A stretch of 64,000 bases of DNA from Lachnospiraceae bacterium (GTDB taxonomy: Bacteria; Bacillota; Clostridia; Lachnospirales; Lachnospiraceae): contig JBGUNV010000002.1 in NCBI GenBank assembly GCA_045117595.1, positions 2,659-66,658 on the forward strand, in the 5' to 3' direction. This document shows positions 15,668-32,511 of this stretch, piece after piece. The notes beneath the pieces were generated by a model, which saw only the letters and a list, made by a program, of their open reading frames with translations, ran no database searches and was not told the origin of the DNA. A program made the position numbers and the translations under genes. Position 1 is the stretch's first letter. Every line of letters starts with the position of its first letter.

Positions 15668-15740
15668 ATATTCCCGGGATCGCGGGCTGTTTGCATAAAG
15701 AATCCTGTTGTGGTAGTATTTGATAAATGAATATTGAATG

Positions 15741-15935
15741 ACGGACGGTGCCGGCGCACAGACCAGGTGATCATGATATACAGGTCTTGGCAACGGTTAA
15801 AAGGGAAACAGGTGCAAAACCTGTGCGAACTCGTCACTGTAAGCGAGGAGTGTGAACATCGTAATATGTCACTGGGTATACCGGGAAGGCAGATGTTCAT
15901 TCGAGGATCCGCGAGCCAGGAGACCTGCCGCCCGT
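15741..15935 (+). promoter_or_regulatory. Cobalamin (B12) riboswitch aptamer
   Basis: Conserved core elements GGTGCC, AAAAGGGAAACAGGTGCAAAACCTGTGC, CACTGT, GTCACTGG, GGGAAGGC and the B12 box GAGCCAGGAGACCTGCCG. A P1-like pairing joins ACGGACGG (15741-15748) and CCGCCCGT (15928-15935). Confidence 0.85.
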
Positions 15936-16103
15936 AGCAGTACTGGATGCAGCATTTCCTGCATCCGTGTCACGAGTAATTGACTGTACTATATGTAGCA
16001 AGGAGGGGCCCGCGAAGCGGGAGGAGACCTTGCTACACCGCGAGGCCTATCGCGAAGCGATTTCTGATGGCCGAGCGACCTTGTATATCTGTGTCAATTT
16101 ACT

Positions 16104-16151: not shown

Positions 16152-17810
16152 ATGATAATGAAAAAGAAGATTGTTGCTGTGATCATGGCTGTTGCCGTAT
16201 CTGCTGTGCTTAGTGCATGTGCAGGAGTAAATGTTAACGTTACTCCCAGAGCAGGTGAGGCAGAAGAATCTACAGGTGCGACAGAAAATCCCGTAAGGGG
16301 AGGAGATGATGGTCCGGATCTGGATCAGGTAAAGGCTGATGCCGTGGCTGAGCTTATTGATGCCATCTATGTTCAGGAGCGCAATGATGAGACCGATGCA
16401 CAGTGTGAGCTTGCAAAACAGGAATGGGATCTCCTTACCGATGAGCAGAAGGAACTTGTTGAAGGCGAATTTGCGGATCCCGATTATTTCGGAAGAGATA
16501 CAGGCGATGCCTCGGCAGATGATCCGTTAAATGCGGATGACATCGGACGTGATGAGATACTTGTCGTAAGTTTCGGCACATCATTCAATGATTCGAGGGT
16601 TGAGGACATAAGCGGAGTTGAAAAGGCCATCCAGGAAGCTTTTCCCGACTGGTCCGTAAGACGCGCATTTACCGCTCAGATCATAATCAATCATATCCAG
16701 GCCAGAGACGGAGAGAAGATCGATAACATGGATCAGGCTCTCGAGCGGGCTGTTGCAAACGGGGTGAAAAATCTCGTGATCCAGCCGACACACCTGATGC
16801 ACGGGGCTGAATATGACGAACTTGTTGCGGCAGTTGATGCATATTCGGACAAGTTTGAAACGATAGCAGTTGCGCAGCCGTTGCTTGGAGAAGTAGGAAA
16901 AGATGCTTCCGTTATCAATGACGACAAAAAGACGGTTGCCGAAGCCATCACGGCCGAGGCGGTTAAAACTGCGGGTTATGACAGCCTGGATGCAGCCGAA
17001 AAGGACGGGACCGCATTTGTATTTATGGGTCATGGTACAGCTCATACTGCCAAGGTAAGTTATGACCAGATGTCATCTCAGATGGAGGATCTCGGATATA
17101 AGAATGTTTTCATCGGAACGGTTGAAGGTGAACCTGAGGATACGGCCTGCGAAAATGTCATAGAGAAGGTTAAGGAGGCCGGTTATAAGAAGGTCATTCT
17201 CCGTCCGCTTATGGTAGTTGCAGGGGATCATGCAAACAACGACATGGCAGGCGATGAAGACGACAGCTGGAAGAGCATGTTTACCGCATCAGGAGCATTT
17301 GATCAGATTGACTGCCAGATAGCAGGCCTTGGAAGGATCGATGCAATAAAGAATCTGTATATAGAGCATACAAAGGCAGCTATAGATGGTATGGATCAGG
17401 CAGGTGCTGATAAGGAAGATGGTGCGGAGTCTGCAGGAGAGGCGGGCGAGCTTGCCGATGGTACTTATGAAGCAGAATTTACAACAGACAGCTCCATGTT
17501 CCATGTTAACGAGGCAAAGGACGGAAAGGGCGAGCTTACAGTAAAGGACGGAAAGATGACGATCCATGTAAGCCTTGCAACCAAGAATATAGTTAACCTC
17601 TACCCGGGACTGGCTTCGGATGCCGAAAAGGACGGAGCCGAGCTGCTCGAGCCTACTGTTGATACCGTGGAGTATTCGGATGGTACGACTGAGGAGGTAT
17701 ACGGATTTGATGTTCCCGTTCCCGCTCTTGACGAGGAGTTTGATCTTGCCATAATAGGAACCAAGAACAAATGGTATGACCACAAGGTGAGTGTATCTGT
17801 AGTAGAATAA
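16152..17810 (+). CDS. Lipoprotein with a CbiK-type (class II anaerobic) chelatase core and an extra C-terminal domain
   Basis: Signal peptide plus lipobox (AVSAVLSAC). CbiK-like blocks ILVVSFGTSFNDSR, LVIQPTHLMHGAEY and FVFMGHGTAH. The C-terminal region of about 115 aa is homologous by eye to the N-terminus of the next ORF. Confidence 0.7.
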   Translation: MIMKKKIVAVIMAVAVSAVLSACAGVNVNVTPRAGEAEESTGATENPVRGGDDGPDLDQVKADAVAELIDAIYVQERNDETDAQCELAKQEWDLLTDEQKELVEGEFADPDYFGRDTGDASADDPLNADDIGRDEILVVSFGTSFNDSRVEDISGVEKAIQEAFPDWSVRRAFTAQIIINHIQARDGEKIDNMDQALERAVANGVKNLVIQPTHLMHGAEYDELVAAVDAYSDKFETIAVAQPLLGEVGKDASVINDDKKTVAEAITAEAVKTAGYDSLDAAEKDGTAFVFMGHGTAHTAKVSYDQMSSQMEDLGYKNVFIGTVEGEPEDTACENVIEKVKEAGYKKVILRPLMVVAGDHANNDMAGDEDDSWKSMFTASGAFDQIDCQIAGLGRIDAIKNLYIEHTKAAIDGMDQAGADKEDGAESAGEAGELADGTYEAEFTTDSSMFHVNEAKDGKGELTVKDGKMTIHVSLATKNIVNLYPGLASDAEKDGAELLEPTVDTVEYSDGTTEEVYGFDVPVPALDEEFDLAIIGTKNKWYDHKVSVSVVE

Positions 17811-17842
17811 TCATAACAGGGTAACAAAGGATCGTATATTAT

Positions 17843-19411
17843 ATGAAATGTGTGATCGGGCGGCTAAAAGCTGCAGTTTTGATATTGATATGCGCCGTTT
17901 CTGTAACCTCCTGCAATATGCAGGGGGTTACTTCTGCCTCTGGCGCCGGAAAGGAGGGGCAGGCAGACGGCACGATAATGGTTGACATAACTATGGAAGG
18001 TGGTACGGGAAAGGCATTTGTCAGATCTCCCGTAAAGGTTACTTCCAAGGACGGTAAATATACGGCAACTCTCGTATGGAGCAGTAAAAACTACGATTAC
18101 GTGATCGTTGACGGTCAGAAGTACCAAAATGAAAACGATGGAGGGGATTCGACCTTTACCGTGCCGGTAGATACGCTTGATGAACCGTTTGTATTTATTG
18201 CGGATACTGTAGCCATGAGCAAGGCTCATGAGATAGAATATAAGATCATATGGCATACCGGTGATGACGGGAATGTCGGAGGCGAAGAGGAGGCAGACGA
18301 ATCTCCGGAATTTGAGTCTGAGACCGACGTCTCAGGATCCTTCGGCGGATTTTCGGATGCGGATTTTCCCGAAATCCCGGAGATAGCGGGTATACAGCAG
18401 ACCGGAGAAGTAAAGCTTGATCATGCCGAAGGATTCAGGATAAATAAATACGGTAACTACTGCCTTATCTCGATACGTGGTGTGGGAGATTATCTTATCG
18501 TGCCTGAAGGGGAGGATATCCCCGAGACGGATAACGGCATAAAGGTGCTCCAAAAGCCTTTTGATGCGACATATCTCGTGTCTACATCGGCAATGGACCT
18601 GGTACGCGAGCTGGAAAGCCTCGACAGCATACGATTTTCGCCCCTCAGGGCACAGGACTGGGATATCCCGGAGGTTGAAGATCTGATGAGTCGGGGAAAT
18701 ATGACGTATGCGGGCAAATACAGGATGCCCGATTATGAGCTTCTTGTTGCAAAAGGGTGTGATCTGGCTGTTGAGAACACGATGATCTACCATGATCCGG
18801 AGGTCATCGAAAAACTTGAGGAACTCGGTATCCCCGTGATCGTTGAGACTTCAAGCTATGAGGCTACTCCTCTTGGAAGGCTTGAGTGGATCAAACTGTA
18901 TGGCGTGCTTTTTGACAGGGAAAAGGAAGCCGGAGAGTATTTTGACAGCGTCAGCGAACGTATGGATGACCTTGGGAAGATACCGGATACCGGAAAAAAA
19001 GTTGCCTGCTTCTATGTATCGGCAACCGGAATGATAAACGTACGTGGCAGCGGTGATTATATGGCGAAAATGATAGGCCTGGCAGGTGGAGAATATGTTC
19101 CTGCTACAGGCGACGGCGGTACTTCTTCCGTGAACATGCAGATGGAGGATTTCTATGCTGCGGCAGCCGATGCGGATGTTCTGCTCTATAACGGCACGAT
19201 CGGGGGAGATATCGGATCTGTTGATGATCTTGTTGCCAAAAACAGCCTGTTTTCGGACTTTGAGGCGGTAAAGAGCGGGAATGTCTACTGCCTGCAGGCG
19301 GATCTGTTCCGTCATCCGACCGATACGGTGGAGTTTATGGAGGAACTAGGAGTGGTTCTTGCCGGAAACCCGGGAGAAAACGCCCAATATATACATAAAG
19401 TGGTGCAGTGA
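17843..19411 (+). CDS. ABC substrate-binding lipoprotein, BtuF/FhuD (cluster A-II) type, with an extra N-terminal domain
   Basis: Signal peptide plus lipobox (SVTSC). The C-terminal part, about 330 aa, resembles periplasmic binding protein family 2 (ATYLVSTSAMDLV, DLAVENTMIY). It sits beside FecCD-type permease and ATPase genes under the B12 riboswitch. Confidence 0.75.
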   Translation: MKCVIGRLKAAVLILICAVSVTSCNMQGVTSASGAGKEGQADGTIMVDITMEGGTGKAFVRSPVKVTSKDGKYTATLVWSSKNYDYVIVDGQKYQNENDGGDSTFTVPVDTLDEPFVFIADTVAMSKAHEIEYKIIWHTGDDGNVGGEEEADESPEFESETDVSGSFGGFSDADFPEIPEIAGIQQTGEVKLDHAEGFRINKYGNYCLISIRGVGDYLIVPEGEDIPETDNGIKVLQKPFDATYLVSTSAMDLVRELESLDSIRFSPLRAQDWDIPEVEDLMSRGNMTYAGKYRMPDYELLVAKGCDLAVENTMIYHDPEVIEKLEELGIPVIVETSSYEATPLGRLEWIKLYGVLFDREKEAGEYFDSVSERMDDLGKIPDTGKKVACFYVSATGMINVRGSGDYMAKMIGLAGGEYVPATGDGGTSSVNMQMEDFYAAAADADVLLYNGTIGGDIGSVDDLVAKNSLFSDFEAVKSGNVYCLQADLFRHPTDTVEFMEELGVVLAGNPGENAQYIHKVVQ

Positions 19412-19412
19412 T

Positions 19413-20423
19413 ATGGACAGAAAGAGGTGCATTGCGGCATTTGTTGTTATGGCAGTGCTGCTTGCGGCTGCGGTGATCATAAATCTGATAGTCGGGAGCG
19501 TATCCGTCGGTCTTGGAGAGGTTACGGATATACTTGTCGGAAGAGGCGCTGATGAAACCGCATCAAACATTATACTTTCCATAAGGCTTCCGAGGATCGC
19601 ATCCGCGGTAATCCTGGGGGGAGCACTTGCGCTGTCGGGATATATGCTGCAGACTTTTTTTGACAACCCGATAGTGGGACCTTATGTACTGGGTATATCA
19701 TCGGGTGCAAAGCTTATAGTTGCGCTCGTACTGATATCGGTTGCATCATCGGGCATCAGACTGTCATCTGTAACGCTCGTTGCTGCCGCATTTATCGGTG
19801 CCATGATGGCAATGGCATTTGTTATCCCCGTATCCATGAGGGTCAGGAGTATGGGAATTCTTGTGGTATGCGGTATAATGACGGGATATATCTGCTCGGC
19901 TGTCACAGACCTTGTTGTGACATTTGCAGATGATTCAAATATCGTGAACCTGCATAACTGGTCTATGGGGAGCCTTTCGGGAATGAATTCGGGCGATGTA
20001 AGGGTTATGGCCGTTATAGTCGGGCTGTGCTTTATCGCAGCGTTCCTTATGGCAAAACCCATAGGTGCTTACAGGCTCGGCGAGATATATGCAAGATCGG
20101 CAGGGGTTAACATAACTATACTGCGGGTGATGCTGATAATTGTTTCGGGGCTGCTGGCTGCTGTTGTTACGGCATTTGCAGGTCCGATATCATTTGTCGG
20201 GATCGCGGTCCCGCACCTTGTTAAGGGCATGACGAAGACAAGTTCGCCTTATGTGATGATACCGGGGTGTTTTCTGTTTGGGGCGGTGGTGACGCTCATC
20301 TGTGACGGTATCGCCAGATGTCTGTTTGCGCCTGTTGAAGTGTCGATAAGCTCTGTTACCGCAGCACTTCTTGTGCCTGTCGTTATAGTTGTGATGCTTG
20401 GAAGGAAGAAGATGTCGGACTGA
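19413..20423 (+). CDS. ABC permease, FecCD/BtuC family
   Basis: Start at ATG 19413, just after the upstream stop. Ten TM helices, with the typical LPRIASAVILGGALALSG and GPISFVGIAVPHL motifs. Confidence 0.85.
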   Translation: MDRKRCIAAFVVMAVLLAAAVIINLIVGSVSVGLGEVTDILVGRGADETASNIILSIRLPRIASAVILGGALALSGYMLQTFFDNPIVGPYVLGISSGAKLIVALVLISVASSGIRLSSVTLVAAAFIGAMMAMAFVIPVSMRVRSMGILVVCGIMTGYICSAVTDLVVTFADDSNIVNLHNWSMGSLSGMNSGDVRVMAVIVGLCFIAAFLMAKPIGAYRLGEIYARSAGVNITILRVMLIIVSGLLAAVVTAFAGPISFVGIAVPHLVKGMTKTSSPYVMIPGCFLFGAVVTLICDGIARCLFAPVEVSISSVTAALLVPVVIVVMLGRKKMSD

Positions 20424-20445
20424 TCTGACAAAGTATCAAAAGTAT

Positions 20446-22860
20446 ATGTCATCAGATGAAAAATCGGTTCTTTTGACCGAAAAACTTACAATCGGATATG
20501 ATGAGGATCTGATAAGGGATATATCGTTAAAAGTTACTCCCGGCAGGATCGTGACACTTATCGGGCCTAACGGATGCGGCAAATCAACGTTGCTTAGGAC
20601 TGTTTCGGGACACCTAAAAAGCCGTGGCGGTTTGGTATTTCTCGACGGCCGGGATTCATCCCTGATGTCATCAAATGACAGGGCCAGGATATTATCCCTT
20701 GTGATGACGCGAAAATCCCGTCCGGATCTTATGACCTGCCGCGAGGTGGTTGAGACCGGTCGATATCCGTATACCGGGATGATGGGAAGGCTGTCGGATG
20801 AAGATGAACAGGCGGTTGATGAAGCCATGGAGATGACGGGGATCGCGCAGCTGTCTGACAGGATGTTCACCAATATCAGCGACGGGCAGGCGCAGCGTGT
20901 CATGCTGGCCGCGGCCATAGCCAGGAAGCCCCGGATCCTCGTGCTTGACGAGCCTGTTTCATACCTGGATATCAGGTACAAGATAGATATCCTGAAAAAA
21001 ATACGCGATCTTGCTGCGACTGGGAATGTGGCTGTACTTATGTCGGTTCATGAGCCGGAGATCGCGATGAACCTGGCCGATACGGTTGTCGCCATGGGAG
21101 AAGGTCAGGTGCAAAGGATCGGAAGCCCTGCAGAAGTATTTGAGGAATCGTTCATAAGAAGACTTTATAGTCTTGGAGATGAGGATGTATCGCTGCTGGG
21201 AAGCCTTCCGTGGTATGAAGGTCCTGAAGGAGAGCGTGGGGCGGGAGGATCTGCGGATCTGCCGCATGCCAATTCAGAAAGATCTAAAAGATCAGAAAGC
21301 CCAGAAAGCGCAGAAGACTCACAAAGTAATTCGGATAGGACAACTGACCATGAAATCAAAAAAGGCGGTTCCATCATGGTCATGGGGACGATGTCGGGCG
21401 TGGGAAAGAGCGTTATTACTGCCGGACTTTGCCGCATATTCGCAAATGAAGGCCTGAAGGTGGCTCCCTTTAAGTCCCAGAACATGGCAAATAATTCATT
21501 TATTACCGATGAGGGGCTCGAGATGGGACGTGCCCAGGTGATGCAGGCACAGTGCGCCAAAACGCGCCCGAGGGCCTGCATGAATCCGGTTCTGTTAAAA
21601 CCGGTCAGTGACTGCGGATCACAGGTAGTTGTAAACGGTAAGTCCGTAGGCAACATGCGGGCAAAGGAATACCATGGCTATAAAAAAGAGCTCATACCTG
21701 TTATATGTGATGCCTTTTGTGAGCTTAAAAGCGAAAATGATGTGGTTATCGTGGAAGGTGCCGGCTCGCCCGCTGAGATCAATCTGCGGGAAAACGATAT
21801 CGTGAACATGGGACTGGCCGAAATGATCGATGCCCCGGTCATTCTTGTCGGGGATATCGACAGGGGCGGAGTATTCGCGCAGCTTATCGGAACGCTAGAT
21901 CTTCTGACAAAAGAGGAAAGAAGCAGGGTACGAGGACTTATTATCAACAAATTCAGGGGAGATAAGGAACTGCTGCTTCCGGGTATCAGACAGCTCGAGG
22001 AGAGGGCAAAGTGTCCCGTGATAGGTGTTGTTCCGTTAATGGATCTGGATCTTGAGGATGAGGACTCGCTTTCTGACAGATTCCGGAAAAAATCCCCCGG
22101 GGCATTTGATATTGTGGCGATCCGTTTTCCGCATATATCAAATTACACGGATCTGGATGTATTTGAGCAGGTAGAGGGTGTATCGGTAAGGTATATCACC
22201 GATCCTGCGGATATGCTCGATCCGGACCTTCTGGTACTCCCGGGGTCCAAGAATACGATAGGCGACATGAAGTGGATGGATGAAAAGGGTATATCCGGAG
22301 CGGTAAAAAGGCTTGCGGCAAAGGGTACTCCCGTTCTCGGGATATGCGGAGGCTTCCAGATGCTCGGAAGAGGCATAAGTGATCCTGAAAATGCTGAATC
22401 CGGCGGAAACATCGAAGGTCTAGCGCTTCTTCCGATCGATACCGTGATGAAACCCGAGAAGACGCAAAGACCGTTTGAGGGCTTTATAGACAGTGCTACG
22501 GGCATATTGCAGCAGCTAGCAGGATGTAAGGTGACGGGATATGAGATACATATGGGTATGAGCGTACCGTATGACGAAGTATCACATTTTACATCAGATG
22601 ACAGCGGATATTGCCGTGATAACATTTACGGGACATATGTACATGGCCTGTTTGACCGGAAGGAGATCGCATCTGCCATTATTACGGCTGTTGCCGCCAG
22701 AAACAAAAAGGATATAGATCCGGGCAGGATAAAGGATCTGGATGAGCTTCGCGACAGGCAATATGATATACTTGCCGAAACTCTTAAAAACAGCGTGGAT
22801 ATGGCAAAAATATACGAGATTGCCGGTATCTCGCCGGTAAGGGAAGCTGAACATGGGTAA
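20446..22860 (+). CDS. cobQ: Fusion protein: ABC ATPase (BtuD/FepC-like) + cobyric acid synthase CobQ/CbiP
   Basis: N-terminal part has Walker A GPNGCGKST, signature ISDGQAQR and Walker B ILVLDEP. A low-complexity linker of about 50 aa follows. The CobQ part has MVMGTMSGVGKSVITAGLCR, KSQNMANNS, VIVEGAGSPAEINL and a GATase end with ICGGFQMLG..YVHGLFD. It is one uninterrupted frame. Confidence 0.85.
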   Translation: MSSDEKSVLLTEKLTIGYDEDLIRDISLKVTPGRIVTLIGPNGCGKSTLLRTVSGHLKSRGGLVFLDGRDSSLMSSNDRARILSLVMTRKSRPDLMTCREVVETGRYPYTGMMGRLSDEDEQAVDEAMEMTGIAQLSDRMFTNISDGQAQRVMLAAAIARKPRILVLDEPVSYLDIRYKIDILKKIRDLAATGNVAVLMSVHEPEIAMNLADTVVAMGEGQVQRIGSPAEVFEESFIRRLYSLGDEDVSLLGSLPWYEGPEGERGAGGSADLPHANSERSKRSESPESAEDSQSNSDRTTDHEIKKGGSIMVMGTMSGVGKSVITAGLCRIFANEGLKVAPFKSQNMANNSFITDEGLEMGRAQVMQAQCAKTRPRACMNPVLLKPVSDCGSQVVVNGKSVGNMRAKEYHGYKKELIPVICDAFCELKSENDVVIVEGAGSPAEINLRENDIVNMGLAEMIDAPVILVGDIDRGGVFAQLIGTLDLLTKEERSRVRGLIINKFRGDKELLLPGIRQLEERAKCPVIGVVPLMDLDLEDEDSLSDRFRKKSPGAFDIVAIRFPHISNYTDLDVFEQVEGVSVRYITDPADMLDPDLLVLPGSKNTIGDMKWMDEKGISGAVKRLAAKGTPVLGICGGFQMLGRGISDPENAESGGNIEGLALLPIDTVMKPEKTQRPFEGFIDSATGILQQLAGCKVTGYEIHMGMSVPYDEVSHFTSDDSGYCRDNIYGTYVHGLFDRKEIASAIITAVAARNKKDIDPGRIKDLDELRDRQYDILAETLKNSVDMAKIYEIAGISPVREAEHG

Positions 22861-23941
22861 AGAGGAACTGTTCGGATTAAGAATAGATGAGCCTTCCGCT
22901 GATGTATACAAAAAGGCGAAACAGCATTTTGACGAGCTTGCCAAACCGATAGACGGGTTCGGCATGTTTGAGGATATGATATGCCGTATTGCCGCCATAC
23001 AGGGATCAGACAGACCATGTATTGACAAAAAGGCCCTTATCATTATGATCGCAGACACGAAGGTCGTAAATGAGGGCATATCCCAGACAGATCCGTCCGT
23101 GACGCTGCAGGTTGCCCGGCTTATGGGGAAGAATGAAAGCACGGTCGGAGCCATGACAAGGGGTTATGATGTTGACGTGATCCCGGTGGATGTAGGTATT
23201 GATTCTGATATTAAGATAAGCGGGATCATAGACAAAAAGATCGCAAAAGGAGCCGGGAACATAGCAACTGAGCCTGCGATGACTGCGGAGCAGTGTCTTG
23301 AGGCTATAGAGGCCGGTATAGATATGGTCAGGTACTGCCGCGAAAGAGGATACGATATCATATCCACAGGCGAGATGGGCATAGGAAATACTACGACTGC
23401 AACGACCCTGTTGTGTGCGTTGACGGGGGCGGAACCTGCTGAAGTTACAGGCAGGGGAGCTGGATTATCTGCGGAAGGTCTAAGAAGAAAAACGGATGTT
23501 ATTAAAAGAACACTGAATCTGCATAAATTAAATAACACACATAAAATAACGCCGACGAAACACTATGTATACAATGCCGTGACGAAGGTCGGAGGCCTTG
23601 ATATTGCGGCACTTTCCGGTGTATACATTGGAGCCGCACTCTATCATATCCCGGTTGTTATCGATGGTATGATAAGTGCCGTGGCGGCCCTTGCTGCTGA
23701 GTGTATGGTCGGGGGGTCACGTGCATATATGATCGCTTCACATACAGGCCGGGAAAAGGGATGCCGGATCGCTCTTGAAAGACTTGGATTAAAAGCCGTC
23801 TTGTCTGCGGACATGGCACTTGGCGAGGGTACCGGAGCCGTGATGATATTTCCGATCCTGGATATGGTAATGTCAGTGTATGATGACGGCACGCGATTTG
23901 ACGACACTCCGATAGACAGATACGAGAGATTTGATAAATGA
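22853..23941 (+). CDS. cobT: Nicotinate-nucleotide--dimethylbenzimidazole phosphoribosyltransferase
   Basis: GEMGIGNTTTAT motif, LAKPIDGFG, and typical length. Confidence 0.9.
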   Translation: MGKEELFGLRIDEPSADVYKKAKQHFDELAKPIDGFGMFEDMICRIAAIQGSDRPCIDKKALIIMIADTKVVNEGISQTDPSVTLQVARLMGKNESTVGAMTRGYDVDVIPVDVGIDSDIKISGIIDKKIAKGAGNIATEPAMTAEQCLEAIEAGIDMVRYCRERGYDIISTGEMGIGNTTTATTLLCALTGAEPAEVTGRGAGLSAEGLRRKTDVIKRTLNLHKLNNTHKITPTKHYVYNAVTKVGGLDIAALSGVYIGAALYHIPVVIDGMISAVAALAAECMVGGSRAYMIASHTGREKGCRIALERLGLKAVLSADMALGEGTGAVMIFPILDMVMSVYDDGTRFDDTPIDRYERFDK

Positions 23942-24477
23942 TCACACTGGTAAAGGGACCGCCGGACTGCGGGAAATCAAAGTTTGCGGAACAGCTGGCG
24001 GTAAACTGTAATATGAAACCGCTGTATTACCTGGCAACGATGAAGGTAATGGATGAAGTCGGGAGAGAACGCGTAAAAAAGCACCGCAGGCAGCGTGAGG
24101 GCGCGGGTTTTATAACTCTGGAGATACCGGTGGATATACAAAACTTTCCTGATACTGTGACAGATGCGGCAGGAAGCGCTGTTGTTCTGGAGTGTGTATC
24201 AAACCTTGTGGGCAATCTCATGTATGATGATCCTCATATGTCATATAAGTGCAGACAAGGAAGCGCCGGTGAAGGAGTTCTGATTGATGATGCGGTATCA
24301 CGTATCACTACTCTGGCCGGCAGGGTGGGTCATCTTATAGTTGTATCAACCGACTACGACCACAGTGAGGAAGAAGACAGTGATACGGCACTGTACATCC
24401 GATTGATAGATGCCGTAAATAATGAACTGTGCCGGATCGCAGATATGATTTATGATAAGAAAACAGGTAATTTCTGA
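23938..24477 (+). CDS. cobU: Adenosylcobinamide kinase / adenosylcobinamide-phosphate guanylyltransferase
   Basis: 179 aa with P-loop GPPDCGKSKFAE, located between cobT and cobS. Confidence 0.8.
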   Translation: MITLVKGPPDCGKSKFAEQLAVNCNMKPLYYLATMKVMDEVGRERVKKHRRQREGAGFITLEIPVDIQNFPDTVTDAAGSAVVLECVSNLVGNLMYDDPHMSYKCRQGSAGEGVLIDDAVSRITTLAGRVGHLIVVSTDYDHSEEEDSDTALYIRLIDAVNNELCRIADMIYDKKTGNF

Positions 24478-24494
24478 CCGACAGGTGGAACGGA

Positions 24495-25280
24495 TTGAAG
24501 ATATTAAGACGGATAGCTGCGGCTTTTATGCTGTATTCCATAGTGCCGATGCCGAAGAACAGCGCATCAGGTGAGGATATGGAGGGTGCGATAACTTTTC
24601 TGCCTCTGGTGGGCATAGTTATCGCCCTGGTCATGTATCCTCTTGTATGGCTGTTGTTTGTGGGAGATATTCCTGTATTTATAAGGGCGATAACAGTTAT
24701 ACTGGTTCCACTTGTCATTACAGGGAGATTTCATCTGGACGGGTTCATGGATACCGTGGATGCGATCCGTTCATATCAGCCGCGTGAGCGCAAACTTGCG
24801 ATAATGAAGGATCCGCACACGGGATCATTTGCCGTAACAGGACTGGTCATGACAGTACTGTTCATTATATCCGGCATGGGCGTGATATTGAATATACCGG
24901 CTTTTGATCCGGGCCTTACGATAAATATCTGTGGGATATTTGTGATATCGAGAGCCATGACGGCTGTGACTTCATTATGGATAAAAAAGGCAAAACAGGA
25001 CGGAATGCTTGTAAACGAGACGCTTGGGGCCGGAAGGATCCAAACGGCTGTGGTATTTACTCAAATGGCAGTTGCCCTTTTTATTATGATATGCGTAAGA
25101 TGGCAGGCGGCTTTACCGATAATCGCTGCTTTCGCAGTATTTACCAGATGGTACAGGCATATGGTAACGAAGGAATTCGGAGGTGTGACAGGGGATACGG
25201 CCGGATACTTTGTAACAGTAAGTGAAACGGTTGCGGTATGCGCTCTGGCTGTTTGCGAACTTGCCATAAGAAGTTTATAG
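24495..25280 (+). CDS. cobS: Adenosylcobinamide-GDP ribazoletransferase (cobalamin synthase)
   Basis: Polytopic protein of 261 aa with HLDGFMDTVDA and GGVTGD motifs. TTG start. Confidence 0.85.
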   Translation: MKILRRIAAAFMLYSIVPMPKNSASGEDMEGAITFLPLVGIVIALVMYPLVWLLFVGDIPVFIRAITVILVPLVITGRFHLDGFMDTVDAIRSYQPRERKLAIMKDPHTGSFAVTGLVMTVLFIISGMGVILNIPAFDPGLTINICGIFVISRAMTAVTSLWIKKAKQDGMLVNETLGAGRIQTAVVFTQMAVALFIMICVRWQAALPIIAAFAVFTRWYRHMVTKEFGGVTGDTAGYFVTVSETVAVCALAVCELAIRSL

Positions 25281-25358
25281 GAAGCTTGTGAGAGACTGAA
25301 ACCAGGTTGGTAAGAATCTGGTAGGAAGAAACAATGAGAGAAAGGAAAAACCCGACAG

Positions 25359-25979
25359 ATGGAACCGGAGACCAGAAAAACGGTAATACTGATCCGCCAC
25401 GGCAGGACCGAGTACAACACGCTTGGTAAATATATGGGAAGAGGTGTTGATATAGGCCTGTCGCCTGAAGGGATCAGGGAGATCGAGGAAAAAAGAGACC
25501 GGGTAAGGGACGTTTCCGAAGGCGCCGTGATATTTACGGGACCACTCCTTCGGGCGAAGGATACGGCAAAGCTAGTCTTTTTTGATCGGGATATAAATGT
25601 ATGCGACAGCCTGACTGAGATTGATTTCGGGGATTTTGAGGGAAAATCTGCTGCCGAATTGGGTGATGATCCGCGATACCAGCAGTGGATAGACTCTGAC
25701 GGTACACTTCAGTTCCCGAACGGGGAGAGCATAGAGGAATTCCGTGCACGTACGATGGATAGTTTACATAACATTATCCAAACGGCGGGTAATGAGCCGA
25801 AGATCGCGATAGTATGTCATGGCGGCTGCATTATGGCGATAATGAGCGGACTGTGCGGGGGAAAATACCATGATTACCTGATCCCCAATCTCGACGGTTA
25901 TATCCTGCAAATGACGGTGGAAGATGAGAGAATATCTGATATTACATATGATCGCATTGGGAGCGGGGATCATACTTGA
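25359..25979 (+). CDS. cobC: Alpha-ribazole phosphatase (histidine phosphatase family)
   Basis: LIRHGRTEYN catalytic motif and a second His in VCHGG. The context supports the call. Confidence 0.8.
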   Translation: MEPETRKTVILIRHGRTEYNTLGKYMGRGVDIGLSPEGIREIEEKRDRVRDVSEGAVIFTGPLLRAKDTAKLVFFDRDINVCDSLTEIDFGDFEGKSAAELGDDPRYQQWIDSDGTLQFPNGESIEEFRARTMDSLHNIIQTAGNEPKIAIVCHGGCIMAIMSGLCGGKYHDYLIPNLDGYILQMTVEDERISDITYDRIGSGDHT

Positions 25980-26955
25980 TATCCTGCTTGGTGATCCTCA
26001 CGGCCTTCCTCACCCGGTGCGGGCGATAGGTGCGCTTACAGCTGCGCTTGAAAGGCGTTTTAACCGGGAAGCTGACTGCGAAGATCGCAAAGATCCTGCG
26101 ATGAAGCATAAACAGCAGATAATTAGGGGATCACTACTCTGGCTGATCGTGGTGATACTTACAGCTGCGGCAGTTGTTGTTGTCATGGTAGTATCATATC
26201 GTGCCGGTAAAATAGCGGGCGTTATCGTTGAGGCGATACTTACATATTATGTACTGGCAGCAAAATCTCTTAGAGATGAGAGCATGAAGGTATATTCGTG
26301 CCTGACTGATGCTGATACGGATATAAATGAGACCAGAGCCGCGCTTTCAATGATAGTTGGAAGAGATACTGCAGCACTTGATGAGGCCGGAATTGAGCGG
26401 GCAGCGGTTGAGACCGTTGCGGAGAATACTTCCGACGGGGTGATCGCCCCGTTGATATATACTGCAATCGGAGGACCTGTGGCCGGCTTTATATATAAGG
26501 CGATCAACACCATGGATTCGATGATAGGCTATCATAATGAAAGGTATGAGTATTTTGGAAGATTTGCGGCACGCGCCGATGATGTAGCAAATTTTCTTCC
26601 CTCCAGGATAAGCGCAGTATTTATGATCGCAGCTGCGTCAATATGCGAACTATTTGATAAGGAAAAGATATACAATCACACACGTGCATTTTGCATCTGG
26701 AGACGTGACAGGAGGGCTCACAAGAGCCCTAACAGCGCCCAAACCGAGAGCGTTTGTGCGGGTTCGCTCGGCCTGAGGCTTGCCGGAGATGCGAGCTATG
26801 GCGGAGTGATCGTAAGAAAACCATACATCGGCGATGAGACTAGGTCTGTTGAGGCGGAAGATATAAAAAGGGCAATAAGATTGATGTTTGTTACGGAGGC
26901 GGTATGCACGGCGGCGATATATATAATAATATTGTTGATATTGATTTTTCCGTAA
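25924..26955 (+). CDS. cbiB: Adenosylcobinamide-phosphate synthase
   Basis: N-terminus LDILLGDPHGLPHPVRAIG, plus SPNSAQTES and a membrane topology. ATG at 25948 is an alternative start. Confidence 0.85.
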   Translation: MREYLILHMIALGAGIILDILLGDPHGLPHPVRAIGALTAALERRFNREADCEDRKDPAMKHKQQIIRGSLLWLIVVILTAAAVVVVMVVSYRAGKIAGVIVEAILTYYVLAAKSLRDESMKVYSCLTDADTDINETRAALSMIVGRDTAALDEAGIERAAVETVAENTSDGVIAPLIYTAIGGPVAGFIYKAINTMDSMIGYHNERYEYFGRFAARADDVANFLPSRISAVFMIAAASICELFDKEKIYNHTRAFCIWRRDRRAHKSPNSAQTESVCAGSLGLRLAGDASYGGVIVRKPYIGDETRSVEAEDIKRAIRLMFVTEAVCTAAIYIIILLILIFP

Positions 26956-27956
26956 ATCTGAATCCTTATGTCATACCCTCTGTCAGGGAAGCATTGGAAG
27001 AATCTGTCCGGGAAGGGACGAATATGGCCGGGTGTTACCCCGATCCTGACCAGACGGCTGTCAGGTCTGCGATCGCCAGATCGGAATATGTTGATCCAGA
27101 TTGTGTTTTTGCAGGGAACGGATCATCTGAGATCATAATGGCATTGGTAAATTATCTGTCTCCTTCAAGGGCGCTTCTGGCCAAACCGTGTTTTGACGGC
27201 TACGAATATGCCCTTGAATCTGCACGTGCTTGCAGAATTGAGAAATATGATCTGAAAGAAGAAGAGGGATTCGAGCTTGGAAATGACTTCACCGATATGC
27301 TGTCATGTGATGTAAACCTTCTGTTTCTGACAGATCCGAACAATCCAACCGGCAAAAATACGGATGAAGACCTGCTCGAGGAAATACTTAATACATCAGA
27401 TGAACTTGGAATCAGTGTGATTCTGGATCAGAGCTTTTTTACAATTTCCGACAAATATCTAAAATGCACAGATGAGTATATAGCGGATAAGATCAAACAT
27501 CATAAAAACCTGTTTATCGTCAGATCCTATACAAAAAGCTTTGCACTTCCCGGCATACGGATGGGATATGTCATAAGCTGCCCGGAGAACATATCCGGAC
27601 TCAGGAGATGCGTTCCCGAGTGGAATCTTTCGTCGATCTCAACAGCACTTATGAGAAGGTTATCTGTCATAGCGGCAGACGGGTCATTTTATAATGATTC
27701 GATCAAAATGATTGCAGAAGAGAGACAATATCTTGCCACCGGGTTATCGTGTCTCGGATATACCGTTTTTAGCAGTAATACTAACTTTATACTGCTTAAA
27801 AGTCAAAAAGACATATATGAGAAGCTACTCTCCCGCAGGATACTGATCAGAAGATATGATGATCAAACAGGGCCGGGTCAGAGGTACTTCAGGGTAGCTG
27901 TCAGGAGTCACGAAGATAACATGAAACTTATTGATACACTTTCTGATATAGGATGA
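26904..27956 (+). CDS. cobD: L-threonine-O-3-phosphate decarboxylase (class I/II aminotransferase fold)
   Basis: Starts MHGGDIY. PLP-lysine region SYTKSFALPGIRMGY. Located next to cbiB. Confidence 0.85.
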   Translation: MHGGDIYNNIVDIDFSVNLNPYVIPSVREALEESVREGTNMAGCYPDPDQTAVRSAIARSEYVDPDCVFAGNGSSEIIMALVNYLSPSRALLAKPCFDGYEYALESARACRIEKYDLKEEEGFELGNDFTDMLSCDVNLLFLTDPNNPTGKNTDEDLLEEILNTSDELGISVILDQSFFTISDKYLKCTDEYIADKIKHHKNLFIVRSYTKSFALPGIRMGYVISCPENISGLRRCVPEWNLSSISTALMRRLSVIAADGSFYNDSIKMIAEERQYLATGLSCLGYTVFSSNTNFILLKSQKDIYEKLLSRRILIRRYDDQTGPGQRYFRVAVRSHEDNMKLIDTLSDIG

Positions 27957-27960
27957 ATAA

Positions 27961-29907
27961 ATGGATACACAGCATTTGACGCCTTCCCAAATAGAAAAAA
28001 AGAGTTTTGAGATCATTAGCGAGACGCTATCGGGTATGGATATCATGATCAACGGGCAGGAATACATGCCCGGAAGATCTGATGATCCTTACGAAGAAGT
28101 AATGCTGAGCGTTATAAAACGCTGTATTCATACCACTGCGGACTTTGATTATGCGAAAAACATGTATTTTTCCGAAGGAAGCATAGAAAGGTTTTCGGAG
28201 TTGATCAGATCCGGTGCTACGATAGTTACCGATACAAATATGGCGCTTTCCGGAATAAACAGGAAGACTGCGACCCGGTTCGGATGCAAATTATACTGTT
28301 TTATGGCGGATGAGGATGTCGCCATTGAAGCAGGGGAGAGAAAAATAACACGCGCTACCGTTTCGATGGAGAGGGCAATGAAGCTGGGAGGTCCTGTGAT
28401 CTTCGTTATCGGGAATGCTCCTACAGCCCTTATGACTCTGAAGGAGTTTTATGACCGTAGGGATTATATACCTGCATTTGTCGTTGGGATGCCTGTAGGG
28501 TTCGTTAATGTTGTTTCGGCAAAAGAGATGATAATGCAGACGGACATACCGTATATCATAGGCAGCGGCCGTAAGGGCGGAAGCAATGTGGCGGCGGCTG
28601 TTGTAAATGCGATTCTGTACTCTATGTCTGATAAGGCGGAGAATGCCTGTATCTCATCCGGAGAGGGAAGGGAAAACCGTATTTTGTCTGAAGAGACGGG
28701 CGGGGCCTCAGTTAATAAGGGATTTACAACCGGTAGCTGCGCTGCTGCGGCTGCAAAGGCTGCTGCTTTTATGCTTCTGGATGGAAGGAAGACAGATAAG
28801 ATATCGATAGATACACCGTCGGGGGTCAGATATGAGACGGAGCTGATTGATGTTATGTTAACCTGCGATGACGGCACCGAGAATACCCCCCGGGCAGATC
28901 AGAAGGTTGTGTCGGCAAGCTGCGCTGTCAGAAAGCCCGAATGCGATGATCCTGATGTTACGGCGGGAATGCTCATATATGCAAAGGCTGAGTATGCAAA
29001 TGATGATTCCGGAAGAGAATGTCATGCTCTTAACAGGGAAAGACTATATAATGCAGGATCCGATGATCTGCGTGTGATCATCGAAGGTGGAAAGGGGATA
29101 GGCAAGCTTACAAAGCCGGGACTTGACCGGGAAGTAGGCGAATATGCCATAAATTCCGTGCCACGCAAAATGATCACGGCGGAAGTGCTGTCGGTAATGG
29201 AAGAATATGACTATCAGGGGCCGTTAAGGATTGAAATATCCGCGCCCGAAGGTGAAAAGATCGCGGAAAAGACGTTCAACCATTCATTCGGGATAGAAGG
29301 CGGAATATCCATTATAGGTACGAGCGGGCTTGTTGAGCCGATGAGCACGACGGCTCTGATCGATACGATCCATGTATCGCTTCGTCAGCAAAGAGCCATG
29401 GGATCTGACGTTGTGGTCGTATCCCCGGGTAACTACGGACTTGATTATCTGGTATCGGAGTACGGATATGATCCCGACAGGATCGTTAAATGCTCAAACT
29501 TTATCGGGGAAACCATAGATTTGGCTGTAAAATCAGGCTTTTCCGGGATGCTGCTAACGGGCCACATAGGAAAGCTTGTTAAGGTTTCCGGGGGCATCAT
29601 GAACACGCATTCTTCAGAAGCGGACTGCCGGATGGAACTTCTGGCCTCTGCAGCTGCAAAATGCGGAGCAGACACGGAACTTATCGGAAAAATACTTGAC
29701 TGTGCCTCCACGGAGGAAGCCTGCGGATATGTGATCGATGCCGGGATGAAGGAAGGCTGTTTTGACTATCTGATCCGAAAAATACAGTCAAACTTAATAA
29801 AGCGTTCAAAAGATATGGAGATCGGATGCATCATTTATTCAACCAGGTATGGACAACTCGGAATGACGGATAATGCGGCATCCTTAATGGAAAGAGCAGG
29901 GAAATGA
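27961..29907 (+). CDS. cbiC-cbiD: Fusion: precorrin-8X methylmutase (CbiC) + cobalt-precorrin-5B C1-methyltransferase (CbiD)
   Basis: The N-terminal half has the CbiC motifs HTTADFD and VIGNAPTAL. The C-terminal half has the CbiD motifs GFTTGSCAAAAAKAA and GIEGGISIIGTSG. Confidence 0.85.
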   Translation: MDTQHLTPSQIEKKSFEIISETLSGMDIMINGQEYMPGRSDDPYEEVMLSVIKRCIHTTADFDYAKNMYFSEGSIERFSELIRSGATIVTDTNMALSGINRKTATRFGCKLYCFMADEDVAIEAGERKITRATVSMERAMKLGGPVIFVIGNAPTALMTLKEFYDRRDYIPAFVVGMPVGFVNVVSAKEMIMQTDIPYIIGSGRKGGSNVAAAVVNAILYSMSDKAENACISSGEGRENRILSEETGGASVNKGFTTGSCAAAAAKAAAFMLLDGRKTDKISIDTPSGVRYETELIDVMLTCDDGTENTPRADQKVVSASCAVRKPECDDPDVTAGMLIYAKAEYANDDSGRECHALNRERLYNAGSDDLRVIIEGGKGIGKLTKPGLDREVGEYAINSVPRKMITAEVLSVMEEYDYQGPLRIEISAPEGEKIAEKTFNHSFGIEGGISIIGTSGLVEPMSTTALIDTIHVSLRQQRAMGSDVVVVSPGNYGLDYLVSEYGYDPDRIVKCSNFIGETIDLAVKSGFSGMLLTGHIGKLVKVSGGIMNTHSSEADCRMELLASAAAKCGADTELIGKILDCASTEEACGYVIDAGMKEGCFDYLIRKIQSNLIKRSKDMEIGCIIYSTRYGQLGMTDNAASLMERAGK

Positions 29908-29908
29908 T

Positions 29909-30667
29909 ATGATACACTTTGTAGGTGCAGGCCCCGGAGCCGTTGATCTTATAACAGTCAGGGGTATGAAACTCATAGAGGAAGCTGATGTGATAATCTA
30001 TGCCGGAAGCCTCGTAAATCCGGCTCTGCTTGATAGTGCCAGAAAGGATGCGAAAGTATATAACAGCGCTACGATGACCCTCGAGGAGGTCATCGAAGTT
30101 ATGTTAACCGCAGAAGAACAGGGGAAAACCACGGTAAGGCTTCATACGGGGGATGCGAGCATATACGGAGCCGTAAGGGAGCAGATGGATATCCTTGATG
30201 AGAAGGGTATAGCATATGATTCCTGTCCCGGAGTCAGTGCCTGTTTTGGTGCTGCGGCTTCTCTAAATATCGAATATACACTGCCTGATGTATCACAGAC
30301 CCTCATAATAACAAGGATGGAGGGCAGGACGCCGGTACCGGATGAGGAATCGATAGAAAAACTGGCAGGACACCATGCATCAATGGCGATATATTTAAGT
30401 GCGGGCGATCTGGATGAACTGTCGCGCCGTCTCATGGCCGGAGGAATACCGGAAGATACTCCCGCAGCGATTGTATACAAGGCCACCTGGCCTGAAGAAA
30501 AAAGCTTCATCTGCACGGTCGGAGAGCTGGGAAATACAGGTAGGAAAAATCACATTACAAAGACCGCGGTTGTATTGGTCGGAAAAGCCGTAACCCATGA
30601 TAAATACAGCAGATCAAGGCTTTACGCCCCTGATTTTTCTACCGGATTTCGAGAAGCAAAAGAATAA
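29909..30667 (+). CDS. cbiF: Cobalt-precorrin-4 C11-methyltransferase
   Basis: IHFVGAGPGAVDLITVRG and LHTGDASIYGA, typical of tetrapyrrole methylases. The length fits CbiF. Confidence 0.85.
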   Translation: MIHFVGAGPGAVDLITVRGMKLIEEADVIIYAGSLVNPALLDSARKDAKVYNSATMTLEEVIEVMLTAEEQGKTTVRLHTGDASIYGAVREQMDILDEKGIAYDSCPGVSACFGAAASLNIEYTLPDVSQTLIITRMEGRTPVPDEESIEKLAGHHASMAIYLSAGDLDELSRRLMAGGIPEDTPAAIVYKATWPEEKSFICTVGELGNTGRKNHITKTAVVLVGKAVTHDKYSRSRLYAPDFSTGFREAKE

Positions 30668-30719
30668 ATAACACCATAAAATAACACTAATGAATAACAT
30701 ATAGTATTTTATAAGCAAA

Positions 30720-31775
30720 ATGGAAAAACGGATCATATGCTTCAGCCAAAAGGGCAGGGAAGTAGCAGAAGGTTTAAATAGAAAATATAAGGACGCGGGT
30801 ATCGAACCTGCAACCGTTTTTTACGGCTTTGATTTTCCGGGCGAAAGTGCAGTAGAAGGTACAGTCGAAGGTACAGGCAAAGATCTCGTAGATGTAACAA
30901 AAGGCGAAGAGTATCCCCGTGTGACTATCGCGGATTTTGCAAAGGAAGGTTTTGCGGCAGGAGCAGCTCTTATTTTTACAGGTGCGGTCGGTATAGCAGT
31001 TCGTGCGATAAGCTCTTATGTAAAGGATAAGCTTACGGACAGTCCTGTGGTAGTTATCGACGATAACGGACGGTTCGTGATACCGTTACTGGCCGGACAT
31101 GCAGGCGGAGCCAACAAGATCGCCGCTACTATAGCCGGGCTTATCGGAGCGATACCGGTCATCACTACATCTACGGATGCGGGCGGTGCTTTTTCCGCAG
31201 ATGTGTTTGCTGCTGAAAATGCACTTACGATCAGGAACCGGGACGGTATCAAAAAGGTATCGGCCAAAGCGGTTGAGGGGAAACCGGTAACGTTGTCCAT
31301 AAAGGATTATCCACCGTCCGATCCGGTTGACATAATTATCGCAGATGAGACTGACAGGGAGTATTCACTCCTCCTGTCTCCGAAAGGATATACGATCGGG
31401 ATAGGCCTGAAAAAGGGCAAGGATCCTGCAGAACTGGAGGATTATGTCCTGTCTATGTTACGGGACAGGGATATAGATATCAATGACGTATATGCCGTAT
31501 GTACGATCGATGTCAAGGAAAATGAGAGAGCACTAAGGATGCTGTGCGATAAATACAGACTTCCTCTTATAACCTTTGAAGCGTCGCTGCTTCAAAAGGC
31601 ACAGGGGGATTTTACGGCTTCTGATTTTGTGAAGGAAACCGTCGGGACAGATAATGTGTGTGAAAGAGCCGCAGTTCTCGGGGGTGGTCCGGGTGCTGAA
31701 CTTATTATCCGCAAAATGGCGCATGAAGGCATGACAATAGCTGTGGCAAAGCGCCGGCTGAAAGGAAACGGATGA
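30720..31775 (+). CDS. cbiG: Cobalt-precorrin-5A hydrolase
   Basis: LLAGHAGGANKIA and GTDNVCERAA motifs, and the position between cbiF and cbiH. Confidence 0.8.
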   Translation: MEKRIICFSQKGREVAEGLNRKYKDAGIEPATVFYGFDFPGESAVEGTVEGTGKDLVDVTKGEEYPRVTIADFAKEGFAAGAALIFTGAVGIAVRAISSYVKDKLTDSPVVVIDDNGRFVIPLLAGHAGGANKIAATIAGLIGAIPVITTSTDAGGAFSADVFAAENALTIRNRDGIKKVSAKAVEGKPVTLSIKDYPPSDPVDIIIADETDREYSLLLSPKGYTIGIGLKKGKDPAELEDYVLSMLRDRDIDINDVYAVCTIDVKENERALRMLCDKYRLPLITFEASLLQKAQGDFTASDFVKETVGTDNVCERAAVLGGGPGAELIIRKMAHEGMTIAVAKRRLKGNG

Positions 31776-31779
31776 GTAT

Positions 31780-32511
31780 ATGGGCAGGATTTATGTGATA
31801 GGTATAGGCCCCGGGGATATTTCCTCAATGACCAAAAGAGCATTACAGGCGATTGAAGAATGTGATGTGATCGTCGGATACAGGGTATATATGGATCTGG
31901 TCAAGGAGATATGTACCGGAAAACAGGTTATAGAGTCTGGTATGCGGCAGGAAACAGAAAGATGCAGGACATGTATTGATCTTGCTAAAGAAGGCAGGAC
32001 GGTCGGACTTGTGTGCAGCGGAGATGCCGGAGTATACGGAATGGCCTCTCCCATGCTTGAGATTGCTGAAGAAGAGGGCTTTTCCGATGTGGTGATCGTT
32101 CCCGGAGTGACCAGTGCCCTGTCATCTGCGGCGCTCCTTGGAGCTCCGATAGGGCACGATTTTTGTGTTATAAGCTTAAGTGACCTGCTGACACCGTGGG
32201 ATGTCATTGAAAAGAGACTGAATGCTGCCGCAATGGCGGATTTTTGCATCGTTATATATAATCCCGCAAGCAATAAAAGACCGGATTATCTGAAAAGAGC
32301 ATGCCAAGTTATGTCAACCACAATACCACCCGAACGCCCGTGCGGATATGTCAGAAATGCCGGAAGAGACGGTGAGAATGTCACGGTCTGTACGTTTGAG
32401 GAACTGGATAATGCTGCGGCAGATATGTATACGACCGTTTTTATTGGAAATTCCGCAACAAAGGTAATTAACGGTAAGCTCATAACACCGAGAGGATATA
32501 CGATAGATTGA
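31780..32511 (+). CDS. cbiH: Cobalt-precorrin-3B C17-methyltransferase
   Basis: IYVIGIGPGD, VCSGDAGVYGMASP, and typical length. Confidence 0.85.
   Translation: MGRIYVIGIGPGDISSMTKRALQAIEECDVIVGYRVYMDLVKEICTGKQVIESGMRQETERCRTCIDLAKEGRTVGLVCSGDAGVYGMASPMLEIAEEEGFSDVVIVPGVTSALSSAALLGAPIGHDFCVISLSDLLTPWDVIEKRLNAAAMADFCIVIYNPASNKRPDYLKRACQVMSTTIPPERPCGYVRNAGRDGENVTVCTFEELDNAAADMYTTVFIGNSATKVINGKLITPRGYTID

Follow-up and report, generated by a model that had tools for sequence, protein, structure and literature searches.

A cobalamin riboswitch-controlled cassette of an exported CbiK lipoprotein, NEAT-like domains and an ABC importer: a candidate uptake route for a B12 ring precursor in Lachnospiraceae

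In a window of 64,000 nucleotides (the whole stretch of DNA that was analysed, contig JBGUNV010000002.1 of assembly GCA_045117595.1) from a Lachnospiraceae bacterium, a cobalamin riboswitch is followed by genes for two predicted lipoproteins, a permease and an ATP-binding cassette (ABC) ATPase. The first lipoprotein, P0001, consists of a CbiK-type chelatase domain and a C-terminal extra domain, here called A, while the second, P0002, has a related N-terminal domain, B, in front of a substrate-binding protein (SBP) domain. We suggest that this gut or rumen bacterium has its only cobalt-inserting enzyme at the cell surface, where it probably lets the cell take in a ring precursor made by its neighbours. 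More specifically, and with moderate confidence, we propose a salvage route in which a precursor at the level of sirohydrochlorin is captured and loaded with cobalt at the surface and then imported. A and B would be diverged NEAT-fold tetrapyrrole carriers that form a surface relay between the exported CbiK and the SBP of a type II ABC importer, and the whole cassette would be repressed by cobalamin via the riboswitch. Both open reading frames lie where an earlier prediction made from the DNA letters (below, the original prediction) had placed them.

What the genome lacks alters how the cassette is to be read. The assembly consists of 267 contigs and is 93% complete. P0001 is the single CbiK/CbiX match in the whole assembly, and neither CobN nor a CysG-N/Met8-type dehydrogenase-chelatase was found in it. 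The hem genes clustered in a relative (L024: hemA, sirC, hemC, cobA-hemD, hemB and hemL) served as tblastn queries, and hemA, sirC, hemC, hemB and cobA-hemD were not found in the genome. The gene cbiL stands alone on a separate contig (C151), which rules out a hem cluster beside it. Since the early genes and other chelatases were not found, the first pathway enzyme is the exported CbiK, followed by CbiL. Judged by its gene content, the organism appears unable to make sirohydrochlorin, yet it keeps cbiL and the later ring enzymes. The original prediction had noted that the window contains no cytoplasmic chelatase, and this extends to the whole assembly. The lack is no chance effect of where the window begins and ends: the ring-contraction pathway is kept, and apart from the exported CbiK no chelatase was detected in the genome.

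The same pattern is seen across the family. Our survey covered 151 Lachnospiraceae genomes, each from a different genus, in which we looked for CbiK, HemB, CbiD, CbiM, HemD and the A-B module. A CbiK was counted as module-type when an A-B match is no more than 3 kb away or when it carries the characteristic insertion; CbiK is the only type of chelatase covered by the survey of relatives. Only the module-type (exported) CbiK is present in 30 genomes, only a cytoplasmic type in 42 and both in 13. HemD is present in 7/30 of the exported-CbiK-only genomes versus 50/55 of those with a cytoplasmic CbiK (Fisher p 3e-10), so that 23 of the 30 lack hemD, and HemB is present in 6/30 versus 38/55 (Fisher p 3e-5). 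CbiD hardly separates the two groups (30/30 versus 50/55, Fisher p 0.16). A short-frame CbiM, defined as a match in an open frame under 300 aa and of the type that adjoins cbiK in several relatives, is found in none of the 30 but in 29 of the 55 (Fisher p 1e-7); from its frame length and position we infer that it is the cobalt importer of the cob operon. The A-B module itself occurs in 42/84 CbiD-positive versus 1/67 CbiD-negative genomes (p 1e-12). Together with the hem counts, this shows that the cassette accompanies the ring-contraction pathway and takes the place of the cytoplasmic chelatase mostly in genomes that have lost the early tetrapyrrole genes; it was not found in corrinoid auxotrophs. 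As a side observation, one surveyed genome (G003) contains an A-B lipoprotein, cbiD, hemB and hemD and has no CbiK match at all.

P0001 starts with MIMKKKIVAVIMAVAVSAVLSAC, a textbook lipoprotein N-terminus; translation probably begins at the ATG at 16158, with a GGAGG 7 nt upstream of it. Of 50 sampled CbiK homologues, 43 pass a strict lipobox pattern. This pattern undercounts, as it misses truncated gene calls and variants such as VGGC and SSGC, and the other seven were therefore judged by eye; they are mostly truncated gene calls or variant lipoboxes. Seven further relatives all have a signal peptide, and six of them a lipobox. Lipoprotein N-termini are thus the rule in the exported CbiK family, and the conserved signal peptide with lipobox sets the family apart from the cytoplasmic enzyme of the anaerobic pathway. 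This agrees with the original prediction, which had described a CbiK-like core behind a signal peptide and lipobox: on the reading of its sequence P0001 is a predicted exported lipoprotein, and the lipobox is conserved in its homologues.

The chelatase domain matches Pfam PF06180 with 254 bits (cut-off 26.2, E 1.5e-75). The NCBIfam equivalog model NF047852 gives 194 bits against a cut-off of 400, so by the NCBI rule P0001 is not a CbiK equivalog. The closest solved structure is FetB from Porphyromonas gingivalis (9b86, E 5.5e-42), and the next relatives are CbiK from Salmonella enterica (1qgo) and CbiK(P) from Desulfovibrio vulgaris (2xvx, E 3.5e-31). In the alignment to 1qgo, the positions of the catalytic residues His145, Glu175 and His207 (S. 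enterica numbering) correspond to FMGHG, GTVEGE and AGDH, and all three motifs are retained in 55 of 56 sampled exported homologues. The position of His96, the haem ligand of CbiK(P), is an Asp in P0001 (counted along the alignment, so the numbering is approximate).

Gene fusions connect the parts of the cassette. In relatives, the two domains always come as a pair with A ahead of B, but they are distributed differently over the genes. CbiK, an A-B lipoprotein and the SBP are three separate genes in L016 and L015; the layout is CbiK-A-B / SBP in L019 and CbiK-A / B-SBP in the window and L022; and A, B and the SBP are joined in one protein in P0189, P0211 and P0228. A B-SBP homologue (P0139) also occurs in the strain listed by NCBI as 'Lachnospiraceae bacterium NE2001'. 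A FecCD permease and an ABC ATPase come next in the examined loci wherever the contig reaches far enough. These alternative fusions are evidence of the Rosetta-stone kind for one physical chain that runs from CbiK through A and B to the binding protein. They fit the hand-off module of the original prediction. A finished corrinoid as its cargo has become less likely than an early cobalt tetrapyrrole, because the module is found in only 1/67 relatives without the corrin pathway and tracks with the loss of hemD and hemB.

The family is large, with 2453 clusters at 50% identity for E up to 1e-3 and 893 for E up to 1e-30; NCBI names some A-B proteins 'iron transporter'. Four proteins (P0204, P0209, P0210 and P0217) are 1300-1965 aa long with 5-8 stretches matching the A-B profile, and these may be multi-NEAT-like surface proteins. 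Another, P0227, is a 543-aa lipoprotein with an FMN_bind domain and further A- and B-like domains, which hints that the fold could be reused with redox partners.

The two extra domains are homologous, as the original prediction had proposed. Within the window the pairwise alignment of A and B is weak (BLASTP 30% identity, E 0.048). The relationship is evident at the profile level, where hhalign aligns 19 A-type to 22 B-type sequences over 79 columns (probability 96.9%, E 1.6e-10), and phmmer with one subtype retrieves some copies of the other. The sequences point to two conserved paralogous subtypes and not to two copies of one domain. The A type has the motifs TDSSMFHVNEA and WYDHKV with invariant M20, F21, W112, Y113 and D114, and the B type has EGGxGKA, WSSxNYDY and DTVAMSxPHEIEY (also given as DTVAMSxxHEIEY) with invariant H92 and Y96.

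The original prediction had suggested testing for a NEAT-like fold, and the predicted structures speak for one. The AlphaFold2 models are confident, with a predicted local distance difference test score (pLDDT) of 90.3 for A and 87.5 for B, the latter with eight strands. When B is compared with the PDB using Foldseek, the best 27 matches are all haem-binding proteins of NEAT type (26 NEAT domains and Shp) with template modelling (TM) scores of 0.6-0.72, among them IsdX2-N5 (E 1.2e-4), IsdX1, Hal, IsdH-N3, IsdA and IsdB-N2. For A, the top matches are also NEAT domains, Hbp2-N2 (4myp, E 2.4e-4) and then IsdH, with TM scores of 0.4-0.5. The models are consistent with the eight-stranded immunoglobulin-like beta-sandwich of NEAT (PF05031), for A with a low TM score. 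NEAT is also the sole recurrent Pfam family for A and B: it is matched by 13 of the 22 B members and, below threshold, in 14 of the 19 A members. In the window, B reaches 22.1 bits and A 15.4-15.6 bits, so both stay below the gathering threshold of 32.8 bits. The B domain of the homologue P0192 reaches 55 bits and is above the cut-off, whereas the window copy is not, so the B subtype straddles the border of the NEAT family. In searches against the PDB, the A profile matches IsdX2-N5 (E 0.02), no NEAT chain was found with the B profile, and single-domain sequence searches of A and B gave nothing useful.

The canonical NEAT signature, i.e., YxxxY in the final strand together with a lip helix that contains Ser, was not found in A and B. 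Where the last predicted strand begins, the haem-ligating YxxxY is replaced by HxxxY in B (H92/Y96 in HEIEY) and by YxxxV in A (W112-Y113-D114, YDHKV), and A has an SSMF lip segment; these positions are taken from the predicted strands and not from a structural superposition. We class A and B as NEAT-fold relatives, but not as certified members of the Pfam family.

The SBP part of P0002 has the class III fold of BtuF (Peripla_BP_2, residues 247-487, 111 bits, E 6.3e-32). Its solved relatives are weak, the best being 4ovk and 5joq. BtuF is not among its PDB matches at E up to 0.01, nor is a BtuF model among the NCBIfam matches of P0002, where the best is IsdE with 29.8 bits, far below cut-off. 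The original prediction of a BtuF/FhuD-type protein is thus reduced to a generic class III binding protein without specific likeness to BtuF. Neither P0001 nor P0002 ends in a sortase sorting signal (LPXTG or NPQTN).

A cobalamin riboswitch lies immediately 5' of the exported cbiK in all five loci that were checked (the window, L015, L016, L019 and L022), and the Rfam match in the window bears out the original prediction that cbiK is the first gene after a B12 riboswitch. Four of these five cassettes are inside or beside cob operons; the cassette of L015 has the riboswitch and sits apart from cob genes, and that of L019 has its own riboswitch, downstream of the cbi genes. No second cobalamin riboswitch was found in the genome by an nhmmer search of limited sensitivity, whose narrow profile came from five related aptamers.

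From these observations we suggest the following route. An isobacteriochlorin released by neighbours (sirohydrochlorin or precorrin-2) would be bound by the surface CbiK, which would then insert cobalt; this could happen outside the cell without ATP, because class II chelatases use none. The cobalt-sirohydrochlorin would move from A to B, from there to the binding protein and through the permease, and inside the cell it would enter the pathway at CbiL. The enzymes encoded further down the operon (22853-35505) would act on the imported product.

Several points weigh against this route. The identity of the cargo, its metalation at the surface and the direction and order of transfer are what we infer, the cargo purely from gene content. 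In seven of the 30 exported-CbiK-only genomes (G002, G034, G052, G059, G069, G081 and G140, loci L025-L031) hemD is present, in six of them hemB as well, and the signal peptide of the only, exported CbiK is kept. Simple precursor auxotrophy therefore does not explain every case; these genomes either have another type of chelatase, such as CbiX, or insert cobalt extracellularly even as de novo producers. In our own genome, no tblastn match was found anywhere in the assembly to the CbiT part contained in a 710-aa homologue from L019, so the ring pathway itself may be incomplete, and a hem cluster or a small CbiX could hide in the missing part of the assembly. The fold match of the A domain is weak (see above). 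No second FecCD-type permease or importer was found in the genome by tblastn, and as the only one found, the importer of the cassette may also, or instead, carry finished corrinoids. Finally, extracellular metals are unbuffered, and at CbiK Co(II) could face competition from Fe(II) or Ni(II); the route also depends on sirohydrochlorin being available in gut or rumen fluid.

The main rival explanation is that finished corrinoids are captured, i.e., that the CbiK fold and the NEAT-like domains only bind cobalamin, cobinamide or cobyric acid and pass it to a BtuFCD-like importer. We regard this as unlikely, but it has to be taken seriously. The control by a cobalamin riboswitch fits such a function, and so does the position of the cassette next to the nucleotide-loop genes cobQ, cobT, cobU, cobS and cobC, which serve corrinoid salvage. 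The importer is also the only one of the FecCD type found in the genome, and there is a precedent in the surface B12-binding lipoproteins of Bacteroides (PMC6143338, PMC8941943). The distribution of the module speaks against it. The need for corrinoid uptake should be greatest in relatives that lack the ring pathway, but only 1/67 of them has the module. Further, pure binding does not require the catalytic residues that are kept in 55/56 homologues; capture of corrinoids does not predict the loss of hemD and hemB or the missing short-frame CbiM in genomes with exported-only CbiK; and the retained pathway from cbiL to cbiA would be left without a substrate.

A more far-reaching alternative, which we consider improbable and rate below the capture of corrinoids, is that cobalt insertion in anaerobic B12 synthesis is extracytoplasmic. 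Here sirohydrochlorin would serve as a 'cobaltophore' that is loaded by the surface CbiK and re-imported via the NEAT-like relay. It would be scavenged, or exported by the cell itself where hemB and hemD remain with only an exported CbiK, and the cassette would stand in for the cytoplasmic chelatase as well as for CbiMNQO, the cobalt importer.

It is very unlikely that P0001 acts in the cytoplasm, as the ordinary CbiK of the pathway with accessory domains and with a signal peptide that is unused or bypassed by an internal start. It is true that P0001 is the only chelatase in a genome with a ring pathway and that it has the operon position where cbiK usually sits. However, the lipobox is conserved over dozens of genera, and the chelatase is fused to or adjoins NEAT-type domains and a lipoprotein SBP, both of extracytoplasmic families. 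Residues 65 to 145 of P0001 contain no in-frame start codon (ATG, GTG or TTG), so an internal start cannot yield a cytoplasmic isoform made of the CbiK domain only and is ruled out. In addition, 13 genomes also carry a separate short cytoplasmic CbiK, which means that the two forms are not redundant.

Haem or iron acquisition, in the manner of the Isd NEAT relays, CbiK(P) and the P. gingivalis Iht/FetB system, is the least probable explanation: the solved NEAT-fold matches are all haem binders, CbiK(P) and FetB bind metalloporphyrins (PMC13065792), some A-B proteins carry the name 'iron transporter' and IsdE is, weakly, the closest NCBIfam match of the binding protein, but the cobalamin riboswitch is present at 5/5 loci, four of which are in or next to cob operons, the occurrence of the module follows that of cbiD, YxxxY is replaced by HxxxY (B) and YxxxV (A), and Asp stands at the approximate position of His96 of CbiK(P). 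The original prediction had counted haem among the possible tetrapyrrole cargoes, and the B12 riboswitch at every locus checked makes this unlikely.

The features of the cassette and the operon are listed in Table 1.

Table 1. Positions of the features in the window and the basis of their assignment.
Feature	Position	Strand	Basis or remark
Cobalamin riboswitch aptamer	15734..15946	+	Rfam RF00174, 98.5 bits, E 2.2e-23
Putative expression platform: terminator-like hairpin and T-run	~16104-16130	+	Read from sequence, 3' of aptamer
Predicted exported CbiK lipoprotein P0001, 552 aa	16152-17810	+	First gene of cassette
Predicted lipoprotein signal peptide and lipobox (LSAC) of CbiK protein	16152..16220	+	Read from sequence
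Conserved N-terminal region, ~80 aa, between lipobox linker and CbiK domain	16314..16556	+	
Class II chelatase (CbiK) domain	16557..17384	+	Pfam PF06180, residues 136-411
A-type NEAT-like domain, C-terminal in P0001 (~residues 430-552)	17439..17807	+	AlphaFold2, Foldseek, Pfam NEAT sub-threshold
Predicted lipoprotein binding protein P0002, 522 aa	17843-19411	+	Second gene
Predicted lipoprotein signal peptide and lipobox (VTSC) of binding protein	17843..17914	+	Read from sequence
B-type NEAT-like domain, N-terminal in P0002 (~residues 38-140)	17954..18262	+	AlphaFold2, Foldseek, Pfam NEAT
Class III (Peripla_BP_2) substrate-binding domain, preceded by acidic linker	18410..19411	+	Pfam PF01497
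FecCD/BtuC-type permease	19359..20423	+	BtuC model of NCBIfam, sub-threshold at 177 bits
ABC ATPase fused to cobyric acid synthase CobQ	20398..22860	+	NCBIfam assignments
Operon remainder: cobT, cobU, cobS, cobC, cbiB, cobD, cbiC-cbiD, cbiF, cbiG, cbiH, cbiJ-cbiE, cbiA	22853..35505	+	NCBIfam

The N-terminal region of P0001 in front of the chelatase domain (AELIDAIYVQER...KEAWD.LTD.QKELV...DPDYFGRDTGDA) has no Pfam match and is kept in the exported homologues P0115, P0169, P0171, P0072 and P0103. It is present in most of the long exported homologues; shorter forms (P0239, G002) lack most of it. In the fused ATPase-CobQ protein, the FecE/BtuD-type ATPase covers residues 25-259 and CobQ residues 325-809 (613 bits, NCBIfam). 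The fusion is in frame, and the relative L022 has the same fusion (753 aa), while in L016 and L019 the importer ATPase is separate and has an MJ0874-type C-terminal domain. The operon also encodes a CbiJ-CbiE fusion of 511 aa at 32508-34043. The gene immediately before the riboswitch (14279-15667) encodes a MATE efflux protein, an arrangement shared with the close relative L022. We do not regard this exporter as a part of the system, as it is outside the control of the riboswitch and is not found upstream of the cassette in L015, L016 and L019.

A kept ring pathway without early tetrapyrrole genes has long been known from P. gingivalis, and to our knowledge no uptake route for a tetrapyrrole precursor has been identified so far. 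Comparative genomics has found the same combination, a corrin ring pathway without the early tetrapyrrole genes, in many host-associated Firmicutes; Shelton et al. 2019 described such tetrapyrrole precursor salvagers, mostly from this group, and named no uptake route (PMC6461909). A 2021 review of cobalt for B12 (PMC7689651) mentions neither a signal peptide nor P. gingivalis, and passages in it on the periplasm concern cobalt transport and sensing, not chelation. In the literature on NEAT with cobalamin or corrinoids and on sirohydrochlorin uptake we found no description of the cassette, nor did we find a link between NEAT and B12 or a Gram-positive exported CbiK cassette described. What is new in the window is the split layout CbiK-A / B-SBP, together with the quantitative tests of gene content.

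The cassette is a concrete and testable candidate for a precursor uptake route. If the proposed route is correct, it would supply the missing uptake step of the precursor salvagers, place one step of B12 biosynthesis outside the cell and provide NEAT-fold carriers with a ligand other than haem. Predictions of B12 producers from gut and rumen metagenomes would also need revising, because such genomes would make B12 only when neighbours supply the precursor.

Parts of the cassette resemble several known systems. FetB/IhtB of P. gingivalis (9B86) is likewise an exported CbiK-family lipoprotein, and it is the best solved match of the CbiK domain in the window. IhtB is encoded beside an ABC importer, and the FetB/IhtB system, which includes a TonB-dependent receptor, has been studied as a haem and iron system. 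Roper et al. 2000 are said to have described that P. gingivalis keeps the later corrin pathway. The system is different from the window in being Gram-negative and in lacking NEAT-like domains. FetB, an outer-membrane protein, is the closest CbiK homologue reported from P. gingivalis; it keeps the chelatase residues and chelatase activity has been reported for it (PMC13065792). The organism lacks the steps to precorrin-2 (PMC6461909). By analogy, the salvage route proposed here would parallel P. gingivalis.

The second exported CbiK homologue that matches the window domain is CbiK(P) of D. vulgaris (2XVX, 2XVY, 2XVZ). It retains cobaltochelatase activity and binds haem between its subunits via His96. 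It differs from P0001 in having no NEAT-like partners, and its organism has an additional cytoplasmic CbiK. CbiK(P) binds metalated porphyrins (PMC13065792), and the cytoplasmic CbiK serves B12 synthesis, according to Lobo et al. 2008 as cited there.

The Isd/IsdX/Hbp relays (IsdB/H, IsdA, IsdC to IsdE-IsdF) use carriers of the same fold, and their logic is the same: a tetrapyrrole moves from surface carriers to a class III SBP and on to a FecCD permease with its ATPase. The corresponding gene order, with NEAT carriers before class III SBP, FecCD permease and ATPase, is found in the window, L015, L016, L019 and L022. However, the carriers in the window are lipoprotein-anchored or fused and have no LPXTG signal, the cassette is under a B12 riboswitch and not under iron control, and the domains have an altered YxxxY. 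The chain in the window is headed by a chelatase instead of a haemoglobin receptor, and its cargo is likely a cobalt isobacteriochlorin or a corrinoid.

BtuG, BtuH and BtuJ of Bacteroides have folds unrelated to the domains in the window, namely a beta-propeller and DUF4465. They are similar in function, as riboswitch-controlled surface lipoproteins that feed an importer of the cobamide family (PMC6143338, PMC8941943, PMC10404256). They are Gram-negative outer-membrane systems that bind finished cobamides. Further, they occur in cobamide auxotrophs, whereas the module in the window is confined to genomes with the ring pathway (42/84 versus 1/67).

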